The notes beneath the pieces are model-generated. The model was not told the origin of the DNA, made no database searches, and worked only from the letters and a program-made list of their open reading frames with translations. A DNA stretch of 64,000 nucleotides from an uncultured Chloroflexia bacterium. GTDB lineage: Bacteria; Chloroflexota; Limnocylindria; Limnocylindrales; CSP1-4. Of the stretch, positions 40,570 through 51,778 are shown in pieces. Where the stretch lies: assembly GCA_963837825.1 (NCBI GenBank), contig CAWIOR010000015.1:710235-774234 (forward strand), written 5' to 3'. Numbering within the stretch: position 1 is the stretch's first letter; each line of letters starts with the position of its first letter. The position numbers and the translations under genes were made by a program.

Positions 40570-41631
40570 CGGCTCGACTCCGCGACCCGGCGCGGCGTGC
40601 TGGCCGCGGCCTGGGCCTGGCCGGCCTTGACGACGACCGGGTCGAGGAAGGCCATCTGGCTCCGGAGCTCCTCGCCGACCCGCTCGATGAGGTGGTCGTG
40701 GTCCTGCCTGGCGCATCCGCTCGAAGTCCGGTCGACCGGCCTCGTTCTCGGCGATCCAGCGGCGCGGCGAAGGTGCCGTCCTGGATCTCGGCCAGGACCT
40801 GCTTCATCGTCGCCCGCACGTGGTCGTCGATGATCCGCGGGCCGCTGACGTAGTCGCCGAACTCGGCGGTGTCGCTGACGCTGAAGCGCATGAAGTTCAG
40901 GCCGCCGCGGTACATCAGGTCGACGATGAGCTTGAGCTCGTGCATCGTCTCGAAGTAGGCCAGCTCCGGCTGGTAGCCGGCCTCGACGAGGGTCTCGAAG
41001 GCCATCTTGACCAGGGCGGCGGTGCCGCCGCAGAGGACCGACTGCTCGCCGAACAGGTCGGTCTCGGTCTCCTCGGCGAACGTCGTCTCGAGGACGCCGG
41101 CCCGGGTGCAGCCGAGGGCGCGAGCGTAGGCCAGGACGCGGGCCCGGGCCGTCCCGCTCGGATCGCGGTGGACGGCGAACAGGGCGGGCACGCCGCCGCC
41201 GGCCTGGTAGACGCTCCGGACGAGATGGCCGGGGCCCTTCGGGGCGACCATCCCCACGTCGACGTCGGCCGGCGGGTCGATCCGCTTGAAGTGGATGTTG
41301 AAGCCGTGGGCGAACATCAGCAGCTGGCCGGCTCGGAGGTGCGGTCCGATCTCGGCGTCGTAGACGGCCTTCTGGGCCGTGTCCGGGACGAGGATCATCA
41401 CGACGTCCGCCGCCTTGACCGCCTCGCCGACGGTCATCACCCGGAGCCCGGCGTCCTCGACCATCGTCCGGCTCTGGCTCGCGGGGCGAGACCGACCACC
41501 ACGTCGACCCCGGACTCGTGGAGGTTCAGCGCGTGGGCATGGCCCTGGCTGCCGTAGCCGATGATCGCGACGGTCTGACCGGCCAGGGCGGCCGGATCCG
41601 CGTCGTCGTCGTAGTACATCTTCGCGGTCAT
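40566..41631 (-). CDS. ilvC: Ketol-acid reductoisomerase (class I), about three frameshifts
   Basis: [113 protein letters not shown] overlap with the ilvN stop. Confidence 0.85.
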
Positions 41632-42215
41632 CGCTTGATCGCCTCCTCGATGGATCCCGAGCCGCGCGCCATGACCACGGTCCCGGTGCGAACGAGTTCC
41701 CTCACCCCGTAGGTTCGCAGGAGCGCGACGAGCGCGTCGATCTCCGCCTCCGTGCCGGTCGCCTCGACGACGACCGACGTGTCGGAGATGTCGACGACCC
41801 GGGCCCGGTACAGCTCGACGATCCTGACGATCTCGCCCCGGTTCGCATCCGAGGCGCGGACCTTGACCAGGGCGAGCTCGTGCTCGACCGTGGGCTCGTC
41901 GGTCAGGTCCTGGACCTTGAGCACGTCGATCAGCCGGTAGAGCTGCTTGATCGCCTGCTCGACCAGGACGTCGTCCCCGTGGAGGGTGATCGTCATCCGG
42001 CTGATGTCCGGCTGGTCGGTGTGGCTGACCGCGAGCGACTCGATGTTGAAGTTGCGCGCCCGCATCAGGCTCGACACGCGGTTCAGGACGCCCGGCTTGT
42101 CGAGGACCAGGACGACCAGGACGTGGCGATGCTGGGCGCCCGTCCCCGGCAGCGCCCTGGCGGGCGGCGTGGCGTGGGCGGGCGCCCCGGACGAGGCCGG
42201 CTCGGTCGCGCTCAC
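41628..42215 (-). CDS. ilvN: Acetolactate synthase small (regulatory) subunit
   Basis: Intact 195 aa from GTG 42215 (GTGA overlap with the ilvB stop). [33 protein letters not shown] (ACT domain), [25 protein letters not shown]. Confidence 0.85.
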
Positions 42216-44119
42216 TCGTCCGCCCCTCCCCAGTTCTCGATCAGGTCGGACAGGCCCTTGCCGGCCGGCATCATCGGGAAGACGTTCTGCTCCTCGGCGA
42301 TCTCGAACCAGACGAGCGCCGGCCCGTCGACCGCCCGGGCGGCCCGGATCGCGTCGTCGACCTCGTCCGGCCGGGAGGCCTTGAAGCCCGGGATCCCGAA
42401 CGCCTCGGCCAGCTTGAGGTAGTCGGGCCCGAGCAGGTGGGCCGAGTGGTAGTTCCCGGCATAGAAGATCTCCTGCCACTGCCGGATCATCCCGAGCTTC
42501 TTGTTGTCGAACAGGGCGATCTTGACCGGGATCCGGTCCTGGACCAGGGTCATCAGCTCCTGGAACGTCATCTGGAACCCGCCGTCGCCGGTGATCGCCC
42601 AGGTCTCGCGGTCCGGCCGGCCGAGCGCGGCGCCCATCGCCGCCGGGACGCTGAAGCCCATCGTCCCGAGGCCGCCCGAGCTGACGTGGCTGTTCGGGCT
42701 TCGGAAGCCGGTGTAGCGGGCCAGCCACATCTGGTTCTGGCCGACGTCGGCCACGTAGGTCGCCCGGTGCTCGGTCAGCTCGCCGATCCGCTCGACGACG
42801 TAGTCGGCCGACAGGAGCCCGTCACGCCAGGCACCCGAACCGTGCCAGCTCGACGCCTCCGACTCGCGCTTCCATTCGGCCAGCTGGGCCAGGTAGTCGG
42901 CCCGCTCGGCCGGCTCGGTCCGCTCGACCATCGGCAGCAGCGCCCGGAGGACCCGGCCGGCGTCGCCGACGATCGGGACCTCGACCGCCACGTTCTTGCC
43001 GATCTCGGCCGGGTCGATGTCGACGTGGATGATCCGGGCATACGGAGCGTACGTCCGGACGTTGCCGGTCACCCGGTCGTCGAAGCGCATCCCGAACGCG
43101 ATCAGCAGGTCGGCCGACTGGATCGCCCGGTTGACGTGCTTCCAGCCGTGCATCCCCATGTAGCCGTAGGCCAGCGGGTGGGTCTCGTCGATCGCGCCGA
43201 TCCCGAGCAGGGTCCAGGCGACCGGGATGCTGGTCTTCTCGGCGAACGCCCGCAGGTCGTCCCAGGCCTCGGCGTGGAGGACGCCGTGGCCGGCCATGAT
43301 CACCGGCCGCTGGGCCCGGGCGATCTCGGCGGCGGCCAGCTTGAGCTGGCGGGGGTGCCCGTCGAAGGTCGGCCGGAAGCCCGGCAGGCCGGCGACGATC
43401 TCGGCCTCGGAGGGGTGCGCGGCGGTCGTCTCCTGCTGGAGCGCGTCCTTGGTGATGTCGACGTGGACGGGCCCGGGCCGCCCGGTCCGGGCGATGTGGA
43501 ACGCCTCGGCGATGACCCGCGGCAGGTCGTCGGCGTTGCGGACGAGGTAGTTGTGCTTGGTCATCGGCAGGGTGATCCCGGTGATGTCGATCTCCTGGAA
43601 GGCATCCTTGCCGATGAGCGCCGCCGGGACGTTGCCGGTGATCGCGACGATCGGGACCGAGTCGAGCATCGCCGTGCCGATGCCGGTGACCAGGTTCGTG
43701 GCTCCCGGTCCCGAGGTGCCCATGCACACCCCGACCCGACCGGTGACCCGGGCGTAGCCGTCCGCGGCATGGGCGCCGCCCTGCTCGTGGCGGACGAGGA
43801 TGTGGCGGAGCTCGGGGTAGTCGCCCAGGATGTCGTAGAGCGGGAGGATGACACCGCCCGGGTACGAGAACAGGACGTCGACCCCCTGGCGGATGAGGGC
43901 CTCGCAGACGACGTCGGCGCCGATCCGGGTCCGCTTCCGGGGCTTGACCTCGTGGAGCATCGCCGACCGCGCCCGCTCGACGGCGGCTGCGGTCGGGGAG
44001 CCGTCGGCGGGCACGTGGCTCCGGCGGGCGCGTCCGCCCGGGCTCGGCGGGGCGGAGCTCTGGCCGGGGCCGTCCGCCGGCGGCGCGCCGCCGTCCGGCG
44101 TCCCCTTGGTCATCGTCAT
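42212..44119 (-). CDS. ilvB: Acetolactate synthase large (catalytic) subunit
   Basis: Intact 635 aa from ATG 44119. [104 protein letters not shown]. Confidence 0.92.
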
Positions 44120-44943: not shown

Positions 44944-46467
44944 ATGAACCGGATCGCCTCGCGTACCCTGCCCCTCCGTTCGCGTCCGTCCCGCATCGTC
45001 GAGGCGAGCGCAGCGGCCCTCCTGGCGATGGCCCTCCTGACCGGCCTCGGACCGGCGCTCGACGGCGTCGGGCTGCCGGGCATCCGGGCGACCGACGCCG
45101 CCAGCGGCCCCCACCTCATCGCATCCGCCGCCGAGATCGCCAGGCTCCCGACGTCGGGCGCCGCGTGGCAGAACCTGAAGGCGGCGGCCGACTCGAGCGC
45201 CGGCACGCCCGACCTGTCGAACCAGGACTCGAACACCGACGTCAAGGTCCTCGCCAAGGCGCTCGTGTACGCCCGGACGAAGGTCGTGTCGTATCGGACC
45301 CAGGTGATGGCCAGCCTCAGGGCGGTCGTCGGGACGGAGGCCGGCGGGCGGACCCTGGCCGCGGGTCGCGGGATCCCGGCGTACGTCATCGCGGCGGACC
45401 TGATCAGCCTGCCGACGTACAACCCCACGTTCAACAGCGGGACGTTCCGGCCGTGGCTCAAGAGGCTGCTGACCGAGGATCTCCAGGGAAACACCCTGAT
45501 CAGCACCCAGGAGACGCGTCCGAACAACTGGGGGACCCACGCCGGCGCCGCTCGAGCGGCGATCGCCATCTACCTCGGCGACAAGACCCAGCTCGCCCGG
45601 ACGGCTCGCGTGTTCAAGGGCTGGCTCGGCGACCGGACGTCGTACGCCGGGTTCGACTTCGGCGACGTGTCATGGCAGTGCAACCCGGCAAAGCCGGTCG
45701 GGATCGACCCGGCTGGCTGCATCAAGGGCGGCGTCCTGATCGACGGCGCCCTCCCCGACGACATGCGTCGCGGCGGGACGTTCCGGTGGCCGCCCGCCAC
45801 GACGGGATACGCGTGGGAGGGGATGCAGGGGGCGGTCGTCGAGGCCGAGCTGCTCCAGCGGGCCGGCTACCCCGCCTGGTCGTGGCAGAACAAGGCCCTC
45901 CTGCGGGCCGCCAAGTTCCTCTACAACCGGGCGCACTGGCCGGCGGATTCGAACGACGACTGGCAACCGTGGCTGCTCGACTACCGCTACGGGACGAGCT
46001 TCCGGTCGTCGGGCAAGACGCACTTCGGGAAGAACTTCGGCTGGACCGACTGGCTGTACGGCCGGCAGGTCAAGGGTTCGGCGGGCCCGTCGAACGGCTG
46101 GCACCGCTACGGCGACTCGAGCAACCTGGTCGTCTACCGCGGCAGCTGGTCGCGCTCGTCATCGACTCGTCACATCGGCGGCTCGGTCATGGCGTCGCGG
46201 CGAGCCCGCTCGAAGGCCGTCGTCAAGTTCACCGGCGACTCGGTCGTCTGGCTCGGGCCGAACGGGCCGAGCCAGGGCCGGGCGGCGGTCTACATCGACG
46301 GCAGGCTGGTCAAGATCGTCAACCTCCACAGCCCGATCCGGCACTACCGGGTGAGGCTGTACACCGCCAAGTTCAGCAAGGTCGGCACCCACTACCTGTC
46401 GATCAAGGTCCTGGGGACAGCCGGTCACCCGGTCGTCGCCATCGACGGGTTCCTCATCCACCGTTAG
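44944..46467 (+). CDS. Secreted polysaccharide-lyase-like protein (alginate-lyase-type alpha/alpha toroid) with C-terminal jelly-roll-like module
   Basis: Intact 507 aa. Signal-like N-terminus, AAWQNLKAAAD, TRPNNWGTHAG, C-terminal 110 aa (YRGSWSRSS...AAVYIDGRLVKIVNL...GTHYLSIKVLGT...VAIDGFLIH) homologous to the C-terminus of the 15575-18401 protein. Confidence 0.5.
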   Translation: MNRIASRTLPLRSRPSRIVEASAAALLAMALLTGLGPALDGVGLPGIRATDAASGPHLIASAAEIARLPTSGAAWQNLKAAADSSAGTPDLSNQDSNTDVKVLAKALVYARTKVVSYRTQVMASLRAVVGTEAGGRTLAAGRGIPAYVIAADLISLPTYNPTFNSGTFRPWLKRLLTEDLQGNTLISTQETRPNNWGTHAGAARAAIAIYLGDKTQLARTARVFKGWLGDRTSYAGFDFGDVSWQCNPAKPVGIDPAGCIKGGVLIDGALPDDMRRGGTFRWPPATTGYAWEGMQGAVVEAELLQRAGYPAWSWQNKALLRAAKFLYNRAHWPADSNDDWQPWLLDYRYGTSFRSSGKTHFGKNFGWTDWLYGRQVKGSAGPSNGWHRYGDSSNLVVYRGSWSRSSSTRHIGGSVMASRRARSKAVVKFTGDSVVWLGPNGPSQGRAAVYIDGRLVKIVNLHSPIRHYRVRLYTAKFSKVGTHYLSIKVLGTAGHPVVAIDGFLIHR

Positions 46468-46501
46468 TCCGCCTGCCCACGGCGCCGGCGTCGTGGCGTG
46501 A

Positions 46502-46538
46502 ACACAGGACGACCGCCGTTCAGGCGGTCGTCCTGTGT
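46502..46538. terminator. Strong bidirectional hairpin terminator between convergent units
   Basis: ACACAGGACGACCGCC (46502-46517), loop GTTCA, GGCGGTCGTCCTGTGT (46523-46538): 16-bp perfect stem. Confidence 0.65.
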
Positions 46539-46609
46539 CTGCGGATCGAGGCCCCGCTGGGCCTCGGGTAGGTCCTACCAGCGATGGCCCAGAAGCGGTT
46601 CCATGGCCG

Positions 46610-46699
46610 TCAGTACCAACGCATGCCGGCGCCAAGGCTGAGGGCGATGGTCGCCAGCAGCGCGATGGCAGTGGTGAAGCGCGCCAGGTTCGCCTTCAC
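46610..46699 (-). CDS. 29-codon hydrophobic micro-ORF downstream of the riboswitch
   Basis: GAGGTG-N7-GTG. VKANLARFTTAIALLATIALSLGAGMRWY, stop TGA 46612-46610. 26 of 29 codons end in G/C. Not in the ORF track (too short). Confidence 0.35.
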   Translation of the reverse strand: MKANLARFTTAIALLATIALSLGAGMRWY

Positions 46700-46732
46700 G
46701 TCGTTGCACCTCGTCTCCGAGATCGCGCCTCA

Positions 46733-46824
46733 GGTCCGGCGGCCGGGCGGCCTCGAGTGGCTCGAGGTCCCTGGCTTTGCGTCTCCGCCTCGCGACGGGT
46801 TTGCCCTGGACGGCCCTGTGGCGG
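46733..46824 (-). promoter_or_regulatory. c-di-GMP-I (GEMM-I) riboswitch aptamer
   Basis: Minus strand: CAGGGCAAACC-CGUC[GCGA]GGCG-G-AGACGCAAAGCC-AGGGA-CCUCGAG[CCA]CUCGAGG-CCGCCCGG. Both 11-mers match the conserved junction strands of the Vc2 aptamer as I recall it. The GNRA-capped P2 and a P3 hairpin are in the expected positions. Confidence 0.75.
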
Positions 46825-46945
46825 AGGACGATCGTCGCCCTCGATCGGAACGCTAGGGCCAGGAGAGGCCCAGGACGAATGACCCATCGGTACCGGTCGG
46901 CGCCCGATTCCGGGGGAGGTTCCACGATGCACCGCCCGGAGCGCC

Positions 46946-47494
46946 TCAGGTCGGGCGGAGCCCCGCCGGGTCTGGGTGGCGGCGCATCGCGGCGACGATC
47001 GCCAGCGCGATCCCCGCTCCGATCAGGACGTCGCCGATGCTGAAGACGTTCGCGAACGGGACCACCGGCGGCAGGGCGAAGATGTCGGTCAGCGGGGCGA
47101 GCGCCGGAGCGGCCAGGACGGCGCTGTTCGAGTAGCCGTCGGGCGGGAGCTTCCCGGCCGCAGCCAGGGCCGCCGCCGAGGCCGGCATGTACCCCCCGTT
47201 GGCGGCGATCGCCACCAGGTTGCAGGCCGCCCCGAGGGCGACGATCGGCAGACCACCGATCCGGATGTTGGCGAGGAGGACCGCGAACACCACGACGGTC
47301 GACGCGACGTACAGCGGGGCGCCCAGGTCGCCGATCCGCTCGCTCACCGGGGCGGAGAAGATCACCACCTGGGCGGCGAAGCCGACGACCGCCAGCGTGC
47401 CGAAGCGGAACTTGAGGGCGGCCAGCCCGCCAGGCCGACCGCCGAGGGCGAAGCCGACGACGAGACCGGCCAGGACCGCGTAGAGGATGAACAT
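46946..47494 (-). CDS. Small polytopic membrane protein (DUF5317-like)
   Basis: Intact 182 aa, 5-6 TM segments (MFILYAVLAGLVVGFALGG..., VVGFAAQVVIF, VVVFAVLLANI, IVALGAACNLVAIAANGG, GDVLIGAGIALAIVAA). Starts 6 nt after the GGDEF-EAL stop. Confidence 0.55.
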   Translation of the reverse strand: MFILYAVLAGLVVGFALGGRPGGLAALKFRFGTLAVVGFAAQVVIFSAPVSERIGDLGAPLYVASTVVVFAVLLANIRIGGLPIVALGAACNLVAIAANGGYMPASAAALAAAGKLPPDGYSNSAVLAAPALAPLTDIFALPPVVPFANVFSIGDVLIGAGIALAIVAAMRRHPDPAGLRPT

Positions 47495-47500
47495 CGAGGC

Positions 47501-50152
47501 CTACCCCGCCCGGCTGCGGACCGGGAAGACGATCGGCTGGACCGCCGGACGGTCGACGGCCGGAGGTGGCGGCAGGACCATCGGGAGCGGGGTCACCCCC
47601 AGCAGCCGGGCGAGGTGGTCGGCCGGCAGGGGCCGGGCGAACAGGAAGCCCTGGCCGAACTCGCAGCCGAGGGTTCGCAGCCGTTCGAGCTGGCCGGGCT
47701 CCTCGATCCCCTCGGCCACGATCCGCAGCCCGAGCGTCTGCCCGAGCGCGACGATCGCGTGGGCGAACGCCCAGGTCTCGGGATCGGCCGCCCCCGACAC
47801 GACGAAGTCCCGGGCGATCTTCAGGATGTCGACCGGGAACCGGCGCAGGTAGCCGAGCGACGAGTAGCCGGTCCCGAAGTCGTCGACGGCGATCCGGATC
47901 CCGAGCGCCCGGAGGGCCTCCAGCCGGGCGATGGTGGTCGTCGTGTCGCGGAACATCGCGGTCTCGGTCATCTCGAGCACGAGGTCGGCCGGGTCGAAGC
48001 CGGTCTCCCGGAGAACGGTCTCGATCTCCTCGACGATGTCGGTCCTCTGGAGCTGGAGCGGCGACACGTTGACGCTCAGCAGGAGATGCGCCGGCGCGCC
48101 GGCCGCCCGCAGCCCGACGACCGTCCGGCAGGCCTCGGCCAGGACCCACCGTCCGAGGGCGAGGATCGTCCCGTTCTCCTCGGCCAGGCTGATGAACTCG
48201 TCGGGTTGAGTCAGGCCGCGGATCGGGTGGCGCCACCGGACGAGCGCCTCGACGCCGATCGTCTCGCCGCTGTCGAGGGCGACGATCGGCTGGTAGTGGA
48301 CGACGAGCTCGTCGCGGGCGACGCTCCGGGCCAGCTCCGCCGACAGCTCGTGGCGGGCGACGATCGTGGCGTGCATCGCGGGATCGAACACGGCGAAGCG
48401 GCGCTTGCCGGCGGCCTTGGCCGTGTACATCGCCACGTCGGCGTTGCGGAGCAGGTCGTCGGCTCCGGCGTTGACCCCGGGCCCTCGGGCGCTGGCGATC
48501 CCGATGCTCGCTCCCACGACCGTGTCCTTGCCGAGGATCGGGAACGACATCCCGAGGACGTCGATCAGCCGACGGGCGACGGCGATCGAATGGGTCAGGT
48601 CGGGCCGATCGACGACGAGGATGGCGAACTCGTCACCGCCCAGCCGAGCCGCCAGGTCGCCCTCGCGGATCGTCGTCCGGATCCGGCCGGCGACGGCCAC
48701 CAGGAGCTGGTCGCCGGCCGCGTGGCCGAGCGTGTCGTTGACGACCTTGAAGTCGTCGAGGTCGAGGAACAGGACGACCGGGACCCGGTCGTCCTCACGA
48801 TCGCGGAGCCGGAGGGCGACCTGCTCGGCGAACAGGGCCCGGTTCGGGAGGTCGGTCAGCGGGTCGTGGTAGGCCTGGTAGCGAAGCTGCTCCTTGAGCC
48901 GGCTGAGCTCGGCCAGCGACTGCTCGAGCTGACCATTCTCGAGCGCGACCGCGACCTGGTTGGCGAGCGTCTCGAGCAGGCGCAGGTCGTCGTCGCCGAA
49001 GCTCGTCCCCTCGGTCAGCCGGTTCGCGATGGTGATCGTGCCGATGGTCGTCGACTCGCCGACGAGCGGCGCGATCATGGCCTGGCGGATCGCCATCGTC
49101 CGGCCGCCCGGCGTCCGGTGGGGCATCGCGAAGAACGCCCGCCGCTCGACCGCAGCGCGCGTCCGGACGGGGTCGCCGGCGGCCAGGTCCACCGGGGCCA
49201 TCAGCTCGGCGTCGGCGTCCTGGAGCGAGGTCGTCCGCAGGCCCTGACCACCGTCGCGGGTCGATTCGAGGAGGATCTCGGCCAGTTCGGCATGGAACAT
49301 GTCACGGGCGTGGTCGAGCAGGGCGACGAGGGCGAGGTCGAGCTCAGGCGAGTGCTGGAGGATCCGGCTGGACTGATAGAGGAGCTCGAGCCGTTCGTGT
49401 TTCTCGCGCTCCGAGACGTACGCCCGGTAGGCGACGAACAGGGTGATCAACGGGACGGCGAGCAGGCCGAGGGCGATCGGCGAGGTCCACATCATCGTCA
49501 CCGCGAGCAGGGCCAGGCTCGTGTTGGCCAGGGCGACGAGGCCGCCGAACTCGATCATCTCCGGGAGCTTCTGGAACTGGGGCGCGCCGCCGCTCAGGAC
49601 GATGACCGTGGCGATCGTCACCGCGCCGATCACCGCGCCGATGAGCGTCGCGACCATCGCGGCCAGCCAGTCGATCGGGACAGGCTGCCCGCCGAACCGC
49701 CCGATCGCCCGGAAGACGGTCAGGGTCACCACCGCGACGAACGCGTAGTTGGCCAGGTTGAAGGCGACCTTGAGCGCCGGCTGCCGGGAATGGAACGTGA
49801 GCGCCACGCCGGACCCGACGAGCAGGGCGATGAGATACTCGGTCGGCGGCAGGAAGAAGAAGCCGATGACCGACGGCAGTTCGCTCAGCGAGAAGGAGTG
49901 GCTCTCCCGCCTGAAGTGGACATCGATGACCTTCGCCTCGGTCAGGAAGAAGCCCACGGCGAGCAGGGGCCACGGGATCGCCACCGGAGTCGGCAGCGAG
50001 GGGAGCCCCCGGATCGCGACGAAGTACCCGACGACAGCCGCGGTCGCCAGCCCGAGGCTGAGCAGCCACACCCGGATCACGGCGGCCTGGCTGGCCAGGC
50101 GCGACCGTACGGTCCCGATGACCGCCTCGGGCGGTCGAGGTGCGTGGCCCAC
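47501..50152 (-). CDS. Membrane-bound GAF-GGDEF-EAL protein (diguanylate cyclase/phosphodiesterase)
   Basis: Intact 883 aa from GTG 50152 (GAGGA upstream). About 8 N-terminal TMs, GAF-like segment, YHDPLTDLPNR...RLGGDEFAIL (GGDEF), QPIV...EALVRW, DDFGTGYSSL, EGIE, GQGF (EAL). The ORF-track extension to 50941 was rejected. Confidence 0.88.
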   Translation of the reverse strand: MGHAPRPPEAVIGTVRSRLASQAAVIRVWLLSLGLATAAVVGYFVAIRGLPSLPTPVAIPWPLLAVGFFLTEAKVIDVHFRRESHSFSLSELPSVIGFFFLPPTEYLIALLVGSGVALTFHSRQPALKVAFNLANYAFVAVVTLTVFRAIGRFGGQPVPIDWLAAMVATLIGAVIGAVTIATVIVLSGGAPQFQKLPEMIEFGGLVALANTSLALLAVTMMWTSPIALGLLAVPLITLFVAYRAYVSEREKHERLELLYQSSRILQHSPELDLALVALLDHARDMFHAELAEILLESTRDGGQGLRTTSLQDADAELMAPVDLAAGDPVRTRAAVERRAFFAMPHRTPGGRTMAIRQAMIAPLVGESTTIGTITIANRLTEGTSFGDDDLRLLETLANQVAVALENGQLEQSLAELSRLKEQLRYQAYHDPLTDLPNRALFAEQVALRLRDREDDRVPVVLFLDLDDFKVVNDTLGHAAGDQLLVAVAGRIRTTIREGDLAARLGGDEFAILVVDRPDLTHSIAVARRLIDVLGMSFPILGKDTVVGASIGIASARGPGVNAGADDLLRNADVAMYTAKAAGKRRFAVFDPAMHATIVARHELSAELARSVARDELVVHYQPIVALDSGETIGVEALVRWRHPIRGLTQPDEFISLAEENGTILALGRWVLAEACRTVVGLRAAGAPAHLLLSVNVSPLQLQRTDIVEEIETVLRETGFDPADLVLEMTETAMFRDTTTTIARLEALRALGIRIAVDDFGTGYSSLGYLRRFPVDILKIARDFVVSGAADPETWAFAHAIVALGQTLGLRIVAEGIEEPGQLERLRTLGCEFGQGFLFARPLPADHLARLLGVTPLPMVLPPPPAVDRPAVQPIVFPVRSRAG

Positions 50153-50332: not shown

Positions 50333-51778
50333 ATGCCTGCCGAGCGACCCCGCACCCTCGTCGAGAAGATCTGGGACGACCACGTCGTCGCCGACGAGCC
50401 GGGCGCCCCGACCGTCCTCGGGATCGACCTCCACCTCGTCCACGAGGTGACCAGCCCCCAGGCGTTCACCGGGCTCCGGGCGCGCGGCCTGGGGGTCCGC
50501 CGTCCGGGACAGACGGTGGCCACCGCGGACCACTCGATCCCGACCCACGATCGCAGCCTGCCGATCGTCGACGTGCTCGCCGCGGCCCAGGTCCAGCAGC
50601 TGACCGACAACTGCCGCGAGTTCGGCATCCCGCTCCATGGGATCGGCTCGCCGAACCAGGGGATCGTCCACATCATCGGGCCCGAGATGGGCCTCACCCA
50701 GCCGGGGATGACGATCGTCTGCGGCGACTCGCACACGGCGACCCACGGCGCGTTCGGGGCGCTCGCCTTCGGGATCGGGACGAGCGAGGTCGAGATGGTC
50801 CTGGCCACCCAGTGCCTGCTCCAGCGACGCCCGAAGACCTACGAGGTCCGGGTCGACGGGCGGCTCGCGCCCGGGGTCGGGGCCAAGGACATCATCCTGG
50901 CCCTGATCGCCCGGATCGGCGTCGGCGGCGGGACCGGTCACGTCTTCGAGTACACCGGTGAGGCGATCCGCGCCCTGACGATGGAGCAGCGGATGACGGT
51001 CTGCAACATGAGCATCGAAGGCGGTGCCCGAGCCGGCCTGATCGCCCCCGACGAGACCACCTTCGCCTACGTCGAGGGCCGGCCGTTCGCGCCGCGAGGA
51101 CGGGCCTGGGACGAGGCGATCGCCGGCTGGCGGCGGCTCCCGACCGACGACGGGGCGAGCTACGACCGGTCGATCACGATCGATGCGAACCGCCTCGAGC
51201 CGATGGTGACCTACGGCACGAACCCCGGGATGGGCATCCCGATCACCGCCCGGATCCCGTCGCCGGAGGACCAGGCCGACCCGAGCCAGCGCCGTGCCCT
51301 GGAACGCGCCCTCGAGTACATGGACCTGGTGCCGGGCGAGCCGATCCTCGGCCGCCGCGTCGACGTCGTGTTCATCGGCAGCTGCACCAACGGCCGGATC
51401 AGCGACCTGCGCCTGGCCGCCTCGGTCCTGCGCGATCGCAAGGTGGCCGATGGGGTCCGGGTGATGGTCGTCCCGGGCAGTCAGGAGGTGAAGAAGGAGG
51501 CCGAGAACGAGGGCCTGGCCGAGGTCTTCCGGGCCGCCGGCGCCGAGTGGCGGGAGGCCGGCTGCTCGATGTGCATCGCGATGAACGGCGACCAGCTGGA
51601 CCCCGGCCAGTACGCCATCTCGACCTCGAACCGGAATTTCGAGGGACGCCAGGGCAAGGGCGGTCGGTCCTTCCTCGCCTCGCCGCTCACCGCCGCGGCC
51701 GCCGCCGTGACCGGGGTCGTCACCGACCCGCGGACGCTGCCCGGGATCGAGGCCGCGGTCGGTCTGGGGGGTCGCTGA
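50333..51778 (+). CDS. leuC: 3-isopropylmalate dehydratase large subunit
   Basis: Intact 481 aa. [63 protein letters not shown]. Confidence 0.93.

Follow-up and report, generated by a model that had tools for sequence, protein, structure and literature searches.

The window analyzed here, a stretch of 64,000 nucleotides of Chloroflexota DNA, contains on its minus strand a gene predicted to act in cyclic-di-GMP (c-di-GMP) turnover and a DUF5317 gene, followed by a c-di-GMP-I (GEMM-I) aptamer with two micro-ORFs (together, the cassette). The first gene (47501..50110, minus strand), which forms part of the genomic context of the aptamer, has a GTG start and encodes a GAF-GGDEF-EAL membrane protein of 869 amino acids, predicted to synthesize and break down c-di-GMP. 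In the Pfam comparison, EAL (9.4e-69) and GGDEF (2.8e-41) were matched together with GAF, and across 869 amino acids the protein was 93% identical to that called in the nearest relative. RLGGDEF and EALVRW were both present, as expected from the original prediction of an enzyme with intact GGDEF and EAL motifs. This gene precedes that of a DUF5317 membrane protein (46946..47494, minus strand; 182 amino acids; PF17248, 7.6e-26), the conserved neighbor upstream of the cassette. The DUF5317 gene ends at 46946, approximately 130 nt upstream of the aptamer on the same strand, close to the earlier estimate of approximately 120 nt past the operon stop.

The aptamer occupies positions 46735..46815 of the minus strand, with P1 extending out to 46729..46819 and a P2 loop of GCGA. 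The scan with RF01051 that had been proposed for it gave 47.3 bits, above the gathering cut-off of 35 (E = 3.9e-6, model positions 1-87 of 87), and this was the sole Rfam hit when cmscan was run over the whole 64-kb window; with a model made in this analysis (R1), the aptamer scored 86 bits. The window contains the combination CAGGGCAAACC...GACGCAAAGCC a single time, at 46808..46773 on the minus strand; 100 dinucleotide-preserving shuffles gave no occurrence. The two 11-mers flank a helix with a GCGA cap, and a CCUCGAG/CUCGAGG hairpin follows them, in the places where a GNRA-capped P2 and a P3 hairpin had been predicted. Across 85 distinct copies, 94.2% of the cells were paired and 11 pairs were changed on both sides, in an alignment that was fitted to the model and thus somewhat favors the structure; this pairing level was reached by 0 of 500 shuffles, and slid controls had at most 48% of cells paired. 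P1, P2, and P3 all covary among the relatives. The P1 helix had been described as weak, which is right for the window copy (four of five pairs formed), yet P1 covaries across the relatives.

The original prediction had also considered that the ligand-contacting positions might be missing, and all three proved canonical. In Vc2 numbering (PMC4744006), the ligand contacts are G20, A47, and C92, which correspond to G at 46805, A at 46778, and C at 46739 in the window; among the relatives, they are kept in 85/85, 85/85, and 84/85 copies, respectively. The interhelical C-G pair that links P2 and P3 and is universally conserved in the class (C44-G83 in Vc2) is taken to correspond to the C of GACGC (column 41 of alignment A4) and to an unpaired G that precedes the CCC strand of P3 (column 131); both were found in 85/85 copies, and the two columns were equated to C44 and G83 via alignment to the Rfam consensus. 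The P2 tetraloop, G-[C/U]-G-A, is conserved in 84-85 of the 85 copies at each loop position. In the window copy and its nearest relatives, P2 has a C.A mismatch as its basal pair (at 46784 in the window) and P3 an A.C mismatch as its outer pair, and these might lower the affinity. When 12 aptamers were folded jointly with RNAalifold, the consensus wrongly paired GGGC with GCCC in the junction, and the Rfam-derived architecture was used instead. On comparative sequence evidence, the RF01051 score above gathering, the three retained contacts, and the covariation of P1, P2, and P3 confirm that the minus-strand element is a genuine GEMM-I aptamer with the c-di-GMP contact set, for which c-di-GMP sensing is predicted.

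The scores by themselves could be read otherwise, as those of a specificity variant that does not sense c-di-GMP, of either the c-di-GMP-I-GGC (RF03167) or the c-AMP-GMP (GEMM-Ib) type. Nine relatives scored best to RF03167 and passed its cut-off (59.8-65.6 against 59), and the window copy scored 49.4 bits with RF03167 against 47.3 bits with RF01051, although 49.4 is below the RF03167 gathering value of 59. The GGC variant, reportedly defined by Weinberg et al. in PNAS in 2017, resembles the copies described here in architecture, with an explicit P1 and a short P3, and the higher RF03167 scores arise because the short P3 is held in common, not because of the binding site. By the two Rfam consensus lines, on which the "GGC" reading is based here, the discriminating position is GACGC-G-AAG in RF03167 and GACGC-A-AAG in RF01051; the variant consensus GACGCGAAG has G at A47, whereas all 85 copies have A. 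The c-AMP-GMP riboswitches of Geobacter and relatives share the GEMM-I scaffold but are altered at the G20 position, their key pocket nucleotide (PMC9481103), whereas G20 is invariant here and C92 is C in 84/85 copies. A change of ligand class is therefore very improbable. This is also an annotation pitfall, in that clan competition in Rfam calls most of the copies the "GGC" variant despite a canonical binding site.

The first micro-ORF, sORF1 (46610..46699, minus strand), begins 35 nt past the aptamer in the window and encodes 29 amino acids, MKANLARFTTAIALLATIALSLGAGMRWY (MKANLARFT...LGAGMRWY), with a basic N-terminus, a hydrophobic core, and a C-terminal GAGxRW. A Shine-Dalgarno sequence, GAGG (46709..46712, minus strand), was read from the sequence 9 nt before the GTG start, and a purine-rich Shine-Dalgarno sequence at such a distance was found in 80/81 linkers. 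A homologue of sORF1 followed 97 of the 97 evaluable aptamers. When metagenomes were searched by a degenerate-DNA scan that used the peptide motif only, 80 loci were returned, 77 of which had an aptamer 24-36 nt upstream; one exception was cut by a contig end, and in the L066/L067 lineage the peptide is kept with no GEMM aptamer. At residues 11-27, the amino acids are conserved and the codon choice is free: Ala19, Leu20, Ala24, and Gly25 are invariant and Gly23 is near-invariant, each with three to five codons. By exact look-up, the 29-amino-acid gene is called by JGI and is a "hypothetical protein" in NCBI, and sORF1 matched no family in Pfam-A (E <= 0.01). This ORF was not mentioned in the original prediction. 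Its product resembles a signal peptide with a cargo of three or four residues.

The second micro-ORF, sORF2 (46575..46604, minus strand), encodes only nine amino acids in the window (MEPLLGHRW) and a TM-like peptide of 32-34 amino acids in many relatives. It was found in 67 of 75 distinct cassettes, with a start between -7 and +24 nt relative to the sORF1 stop, in most cases between -7 and +11, a spacing from which translational coupling to sORF1 is predicted. Its sole constant part is the C-terminal AG[HQ]RW, and the codons of the A-G-H-R-W tail vary freely at synonymous positions; L112/L113, L032, and L033 retain the nine-codon form. Neither sORF1 nor sORF2 matched a family in NCBIfam (E <= 1). 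As judged from these codon patterns, both peptides are under protein-level selection.

The cassette also has boundaries of its own. A -10-like hexamer, TAGCGT (46850..46855, minus strand), is a putative cassette promoter of the form TAnnGT; it came from the comparative alignment only, in which A was found in 75/77 and T in 77/77 upstream regions, and the box lies 11-12 nt before a 5' hairpin, P0. This hairpin (46824..46842, minus strand), GAGGGCG-ACGAU-CGUCCUC (GAGGGCGACGAUCGUCCUC), is the 8-bp hairpin noted earlier just upstream of the aptamer. It is conserved and covaries, in that three of its pairs alternate among G-C, A-U, and G-U across 77 sequences, with a change from G.U to A-U in the nearest relatives. 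At the other end, a GC-rich terminator hairpin (46501..46543, minus strand; 17 bp, approximately -36 kcal/mol) is held in common with the convergent gene at 44944..46467 on the plus strand, and a terminator-like hairpin ends all 72 cassettes with enough sequence (median -28 kcal/mol). The terminator scan gave a single terminator-like match, outside the element and in the convergent gene. Furthermore, 13 loci hold two or three tandem cassettes, and the upstream region with the box is repeated ahead of each. Each cassette may thus have its own promoter at the TAnnGT box, with the inferred transcript starting at P0. A simple sigma-70 consensus scan detected no promoter, and the -35 region was not recognizable, so read-through from DUF5317 is possible.

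These data bear on whether the aptamer regulates the ORFs at all. Some small RNAs derived from riboswitches have no gene under their control, such as the merRNA of Bdellovibrio. With this precedent, the aptamer, which lies approximately 130 nt beyond the end of the DUF5317 gene in the same orientation and for which no sigma-70 consensus promoter was found, could belong to the tail end of that operon or be a small RNA that binds c-di-GMP as a sponge, followed by accidental ORFs. Such an orphan or 3'-UTR element is highly unlikely, given that an ORF with a Shine-Dalgarno sequence follows 97/97 aptamers at a fixed distance, that the codons bear strong signs of protein selection, and that the cassettes are repeated together with their upstream region and terminator. 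The region 46855..46501 of the minus strand is probably a self-contained transcription unit consisting of a c-di-GMP-I leader and two translationally coupled micro-ORFs.

In terms of the expression platform, which had been described as not obvious, a candidate is now proposed within the first 26 nt of sORF1 on the basis of codon constraint and a hairpin. Codons 1-8 of sORF1 show almost no synonymous variation (H <= 0.18), whereas equally conserved later residues have H of 1.0-1.85; for example, early codons are GCG in 71/71, CTG in 76/77, and CGC in 77/77. This segment forms a predicted start-codon hairpin, GUGAAGGCG-AACCUGG-CGCGCUUCAC (46674..46699, minus strand; approximately -11 kcal/mol), with the loop CCUGGC at 46683..46688; the window contains the hairpin sequence a single time. 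Almost every variant is predicted to form the hairpin, and four copies with three co-occurring substitutions retain it in a shifted register. The proposed partner of its loop is the nearly invariant J1/2 strand UCCAGG (46805..46810, minus strand), which holds G20 and is complementary to ORF positions +12..+16. In L004, J1/2 is CUCAGG and the ORF has CCUGAG, a double compensatory change with ORF +16/+17, and in the L089/L095 lineage both the J1/2 and loop partners are lost; the pairing spans no more than 5-6 bp, and the covariation in its favor comes from this one lineage and this one lineage of co-loss.

Three other pairings were considered and set aside. A mini-hairpin in the linker that would sequester the Shine-Dalgarno sequence had -7.2 kcal/mol against -6.7 in mononucleotide shuffles and paired at least three of the four Shine-Dalgarno bases in only 37/80 linkers. 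Pairing of the ORF loop with the 5' strand of P3 (GCCAGG) appeared in ensemble folding, and the P3 variants were unmatched by ORF changes, so J1/2 was preferred. Pairing of the aptamer CAGGGC with ORF +54..+59 (GCCCUG), also seen in folding, is probably a GC-rich accident because the Leu20 codons vary freely.

The start-codon hairpin, the near-zero synonymous variation, and the complementarity to J1/2 together point to control at translation initiation. In the proposed mechanism, the start codon would sit at the base of the hairpin formed by ORF nucleotides 1-26, and the loop CCUGG would pair with CCAGG of J1/2, which includes the ligand-contacting G20. The J1/2 strand could thus serve either the ligand or the hairpin loop, but not both at once, so that c-di-GMP would alter the accessibility of the initiation region. 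We compared constrained with unconstrained folding for the sign of the switch. With the aptamer enforced, the probability that the loop is unpaired was approximately 0.7, against approximately 0.35, and the modeled start-codon accessibility shifted modestly (0.13-0.23 against 0.23-0.30). The folding gave no clear preference for ON or OFF. We lean slightly toward an ON switch, in which the ligand would free a pseudoknot that otherwise encloses the Shine-Dalgarno sequence and the start codon.

The small size of this accessibility change would also be consistent with regulation of the same micro-ORF operon via transcription, through Rho-dependent termination or translation-coupled RNA decay, with the 26 nt serving, for example, as a protein site or ribosome standby site. 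High-GC organisms often lack canonical U-tract terminators, so a cryptic attenuator could escape detection. However, the start lies only approximately 35 nt from the aptamer, with no terminator-like hairpin and U-run between them; the nucleotide constraint coincides exactly with the start codon plus the 23 nt after it, a segment predicted to form a hairpin; and the compensatory change in L004 involves J1/2. We regard transcriptional control as unlikely, and translational control as the reading to be preferred.

The wider setting of the cassette is conserved. In a Limnocylindria-like clade of soil Chloroflexota, the cassette adjoins DUF5317 and a membrane GGDEF-EAL gene. DUF5317 lies directly upstream on the same strand at 62 of 66 metagenome loci with enough flanking sequence and directly upstream in 8 of 10 close genome loci, and a GGDEF-EAL homologue occurs near the cassette in three arrangements. 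In distant phyla, DUF5317 follows MASE9-HD-GYP genes. This conserved synteny supports the earlier proposition of a single local module made up of sensor RNA and c-di-GMP enzyme genes; the part that did not stand is the position of the RNA, which appears to be a leader in its own right rather than the tail of the operon. As for DUF5317 itself, a sequence search of the PDB gave no match, the 2611 homologues had only "hypothetical" names, and exact look-up of the window's protein returned no record. Its AlphaFold2 model was usable (pLDDT 82) and had no match in the PDB with Foldseek (best E = 6), and a literature search on DUF5317 found no paper.

From synteny, the peptides may be small products, inserted into the membrane or exported, that share a c-di-GMP circuit with DUF5317 and the GGDEF-EAL protein. 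Tentatively, and with rather low confidence, the micro-peptides (GAGx[RK]W and AG[HQ]RW) could be the output of a c-di-GMP feedback circuit, in which the riboswitch would set their synthesis and the peptides would act on DUF5317 and/or the membrane domain of the GGDEF-EAL protein, altering c-di-GMP turnover. They would work either as membrane-embedded micro-proteins or, once exported or processed, as short extracellular signals. If this is true, a riboswitch would drive a peptide that regulates a second-messenger enzyme, and the expression platform would be a ligand-contacting aptamer strand that pairs directly with a hairpin loop in the coding sequence. Such an ORF-embedded platform, if real, would be an economical design, the signs of which are 26 nt with almost no synonymous variation and the complementarity to the G20 strand.

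The riboswitch class is already known, and the cassettes add a well-supported GEMM-I clade of at least 85 distinct sequences in poorly studied soil Chloroflexota. Of more interest are the regulated genes, an unannotated family of peptides of 29 and 9-34 amino acids with conserved C-terminal motifs; neither this family nor its link with DUF5317 has been described before. The tight association of the peptides with DUF5317 and with GGDEF-EAL or HD-GYP enzymes provides a testable entry to the role of DUF5317 and to c-di-GMP signaling in Chloroflexota.

By analogy only, the peptides resemble the small Phr, SHP/XIP, and AgrD pro-peptides that Gram-positive signaling systems export or process in their length (20-45 amino acids), basic N-terminus, hydrophobic core, and short conserved C-terminal motif, and the variable N-terminus of sORF2 with its constant AG[HQ]RW might recall a leader and core; however, there is no homology, and no RRNPP or AgrB/C-type gene lies nearby. 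The aptamers share with the RF01051 riboswitches (Vc2 and Vc1 of V. cholerae and Bc1 of Bacillus thuringiensis) the three-helix junction, the junction strands GGCAAACC and GACGCAAAGCC, the GNRA-type P2 loop, the G20/A47/C92 contacts, and a 5' leader position on the same strand. They differ in their short P3 without the 11-nt tetraloop receptor, a lineage-specific J1/2 (UCCAGG), and the extra conserved 5' hairpin P0. Their targets are two micro-ORFs rather than annotated motility, adhesion, or enzyme genes, and the putative expression platform lies within the coding sequence. As in the tandem c-di-GMP-I arrangements (PMC9481103), several GEMM-I aptamers can occur per 1-1.5 kb, at 13 loci; in contrast to aptamers stacked on one gene, whole cassettes are repeated here, each with a promoter-like region, ORFs, and a terminator.

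The junction strings CAGGGCAAACC and GACGCAAAGCC, equated with those of the Vc2 aptamer in the original prediction, lie in that order at 46808..46773 of the minus strand, with a GCGA-capped helix between them and a CCUCGAG/CUCGAGG hairpin after them. The window contains a single such pair, and 100 dinucleotide-preserving shuffles contained none. The only above-gathering match in the whole 64-kb window in cmscan against Rfam 15 was a full-length match to RF01051 (c-di-GMP-I) at 46815..46735 of the minus strand (score 47.3 bits, cut-off 35; E = 3.9e-6). The GEMM-I call was correct. Across 85 distinct copies, in an alignment that was fitted to the model and thus somewhat favors the structure, 94% of the cells were in standard pairs and both partners had changed in 11 of the 24 pairs; none of 500 shuffles was as good, and slid controls were at most 48% paired. 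The ligand contacts of Vc2 are G20, A47, and C92 (PMC4744006). By alignment column, they correspond to 46805, 46778, and 46739 of the minus strand, and were occupied by G in 85/85, A in 85/85, and C in 84/85 copies, respectively. The columns that we assigned to the interhelical C-G pair were invariant in the 85 copies, and the P2 loop was G-Y-G-A. The pair that closes the P2 base beside the binding junction is a C.A mismatch in the window (46784 A opposite 46799 C). This mismatch was found in one of the 85 distinct copies and in the two nearest relatives added later (L112 and L113), which have compensatory substitutions in P2 and the 5' hairpin as well. The mismatch is thus a trait of the lineage, whose structure is still under selection, rather than an error; it may tune affinity. 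The outermost P3 pair of the window copy is A.C.

Nine relatives scored best to a different family, RF03167 (c-di-GMP-I-GGC), at 59.8–65.6 bits, above its cut-off of 59, and Rfam clan competition places most relatives there (loci L001, L002, L004–L008, and L028), whereas the window copy (46734..46814) scored 49.4 bits, under that cut-off. We take the "GGC" in the name to mean G20/G47/C92; the A47 position distinguishes the two Rfam consensus sequences (GACGC-G-AAG in RF03167 versus GACGC-A-AAG in RF01051). Because all copies have A at this position, a GGC specificity variant is very unlikely, and the higher RF03167 scores derive from the shared short P3, not from the binding site. Automatic annotation would thus mislabel the RNAs of this clade as a specificity variant despite their canonical A47 position.

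The element does lie downstream of the operon, with the DUF5317 gene upstream on the same strand, but its own micro-ORF, 35 nt downstream, had gone unseen. On the minus strand, a Shine-Dalgarno GAGG (46712..46709) is followed by sORF1, which has 29 codons and a GTG start (46699..46610; MKANLARFTTAIALLATIALSLGAGMRWY), five nucleotides later by the nine-codon sORF2 (46604..46575; MEPLLGHRW), and then by a 17-bp GC-rich hairpin of about -36 kcal/mol by folding (46543..46501). In GTDB genomes, the DUF5317 relatives belonged to Chloroflexota MAGs (Limnocylindria-like and "Chloroflexia"), not to Actinobacteria. A GEMM-I-type aptamer was located 3' of DUF5317 on the same strand in nine of the 10 closest loci, mostly 130–180 nt away, and two of the 10 contained two and three copies. 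Approximately 35 nt downstream of every copy, an ORF homologous to sORF1 begins; in most cases, a second ORF with the C-terminus AGHRW and a hairpin come next. In a reverse test, metagenome contigs were scanned with the peptide motif alone (AL[TS][LI]GAGx[RK]W), without RNA information. This yielded 164 confirmed relatives; 80 loci were retained. When these loci and the earlier ones were searched with a covariance model built from 12 aptamers, 100 aptamers (85 distinct) were detected, each on the same strand as the peptide. The aptamer lay 24–36 nt 5' of the peptide start in 77 of the 80 peptide loci, and the ORF followed the aptamer in 97/97 evaluable cases. One of the three remaining loci was cut by a contig end; the other two represent a single lineage (L066:4800-5090 and L067:3005-3290), in which the 29-aa peptide is kept with a TTG start, the 5' region of the ORF is changed to AAT GTT, and the covariance model found no GEMM aptamer upstream. 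The upstream RNA of this lineage may have decayed or may be a different leader.

Thirteen loci contained two or three cassettes (three in L002; two each in L005, L040, L047, L049, L050, L060, L068, L070, L080, L101, L107, and L109). The tandem repeats comprise whole cassettes, from the promoter-like region through the aptamer and sORFs to the terminator, spaced approximately 500–630 nt apart, and in several pairs the sORF1 of the first copy has a C-terminal extension of 6–10 aa (e.g., ...IRWNALLAWH and ...MRWDALSSLRAF).

The micro-ORFs behave as genes. Invariant or near-invariant residues of sORF1 are each encoded by several codons (Ala19, four; Leu20, five, including TTG; Gly23, three; Ala24, four; Gly25, four; Arg27, five), indicating selection on the protein, which is 29 aa long in 53/81 copies. 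Of 75 distinct cassettes, 67 contained sORF2, as a TM-like form of 32–34 aa, a hydrophilic form of 24–30 aa, or the ultrashort form of 9–10 aa seen in the window. Its only constant part is the C-terminal AG[HQ]RW, in which the Ala, Gly, and His codons vary freely at synonymous sites. Translational coupling is suggested by the distance between the sORF1 stop and the sORF2 start, -7 to +24 nt and mostly -7 to +11. Neither peptide matched NCBIfam, and sORF1 had no Pfam match; it appears in public records as "hypothetical protein", and in the nearest relative the 29-aa ORF was called by the JGI gene caller without annotation.

Approximately 120 nt upstream of every aptamer are conserved and recur before each tandem cassette. 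Within this region, a TAnnGT hexamer (46855..46850, minus strand, from the comparative alignment) lies 11–12 nt 5' of the P0 hairpin, with A in 75 and T in 77 of 77 upstream regions; P0 itself (46842..46824, minus strand) has three pairs that alternate among G-C, A-U, and G-U. A strong hairpin was found at the 3' end of all 72 cassettes with room. The cassette would thus have its own promoter, with a putative TSS near 46843. A consensus scan identified no sigma-70 promoter and the -35 element was not recognizable, so some read-through from DUF5317 is possible. Two more conserved blocks occur 5' of the -10-like box (46870..46935 of the window, minus strand, and the 77 aligned regions), one reading CGGTGC-N6-GCAC(TGACCC) or GGAACCTCCCCC and the other GGTAC-N4-5-GGGTCAT; these blocks could bind a regulator, serve as a -35/UP region, or be the 3' terminus of the DUF5317 transcript. 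The terminator hairpin lies 34 nt from the end of a convergent plus-strand gene of 507 aa (44944..46467; alginate-lyase-like, weak domain) and probably functions on both strands. Only the nearest relatives (L112–L114) share this neighboring gene with the window.

The original prediction found no expression platform; a probable one can now be proposed inside sORF1. Codons 1–8 (GTG AAG GCG AAC CTG GCG CGC TTC) show essentially no synonymous variation (GCG 71/71, CTG 76/77, GCG 71/73, CGC 77/77), whereas later codons vary, indicating an RNA-level constraint on nt 1–26 in addition to coding. These nucleotides are predicted to form a hairpin (about -11 kcal/mol) whose loop is AACCUGG and whose base holds the start codon, and four copies with three co-occurring substitutions retain it in a shifted register. 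The loop CCUGG(C) is complementary both to (U)CCAGG of the aptamer junction strand J1/2, the last G of which is G20, and to the P3 5' strand GCCAGG, and natural variation discriminates between these two partners. Pairing with P3 was rejected, as P3-strand variants occurred without matching ORF changes. For J1/2, L004 contains a double compensatory change (J1/2 CUCAGG with ORF CCUGAG), and neither motif survives in the L089/L095 lineage. When the aptamer was enforced in silico, the loop was unpaired at about 0.7 versus about 0.35, and the start-codon hairpin formed more fully. Ligand binding and J1/2–loop pairing would be mutually exclusive, which would alter access to the initiation region. 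The evidence for this reading, from a single lineage with compensation, a single lineage with joint loss, and the signal at synonymous sites, is suggestive, not conclusive. For the sign of the switch, we lean slightly toward ON, because a ligand-free pseudoknot would enclose the Shine-Dalgarno sequence and the start codon.

The proposed local module of sensor RNA and c-di-GMP enzyme is backed by conserved neighbor genes. The upstream genes are as originally described: DUF5317 (47494..46946) and a GAF-GGDEF-EAL protein (50110..47501) with both the GGDEF and EAL motifs present. Of the 66 metagenome loci with room, 62 had a DUF5317 homologue ending 100–258 nt upstream in the same orientation. A GGDEF-EAL homologue (≥45% identity) preceded the cassette on its strand in 25 loci, followed it on that strand in 13, and lay upstream in divergent orientation in four. 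The nearest relative has the gene order of the window, with identities of 90% (DUF5317) and 93% (GGDEF-EAL). From synteny and their signal-peptide-like shape, the peptides might act on DUF5317 or the GGDEF-EAL enzyme, or might be exported signals. Putative genes for branched-chain amino acids lie on both sides of the module (41628..44100, minus strand; 50333..51778, plus strand): the ilvN/ilvB-like assignment comes from ORF translations, supported by TPP-enzyme domains in the syntenic L112 gene, and the leuC-like assignment from ORF translation alone. In L008, a leuC-like gene starts just after the cassette.

The 2611 DUF5317 homologues are named only "hypothetical"; a literature search found no paper on the family, and neither a sequence search nor a structure search (AF2 model, pLDDT 82; best Foldseek E = 6) identified a PDB relative. 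An HD-GYP (PF13487) gene lies immediately upstream of the DUF5317 gene in Bipolaricaulota, Desulfobacteria, Spirochaetes, and Thermotogae (L010:4826-5998, L018:4750-6000, L019:2601-3917, L012:42-815, and L016:75-821). Where this gene is full-length (L010, L018, and L019), a MASE9 membrane domain is recognizable, weakly in two of the three. This arrangement in distant phyla indicates that DUF5317 generally shares operons with membrane enzymes of c-di-GMP turnover. The cassette is absent from two paralogue-like DUF5317 loci, L003 and L009.

The riboswitch itself is a new representative of a known class, c-di-GMP-I. What is added to it is the micro-peptide target, the probable in-ORF expression platform, and the DUF5317 link: the target is a pair of micro-peptide genes that is undescribed, and the association of DUF5317 with c-di-GMP phosphodiesterases is general and unreported, the riboswitch–peptide cassette being an addition in one Chloroflexota clade.
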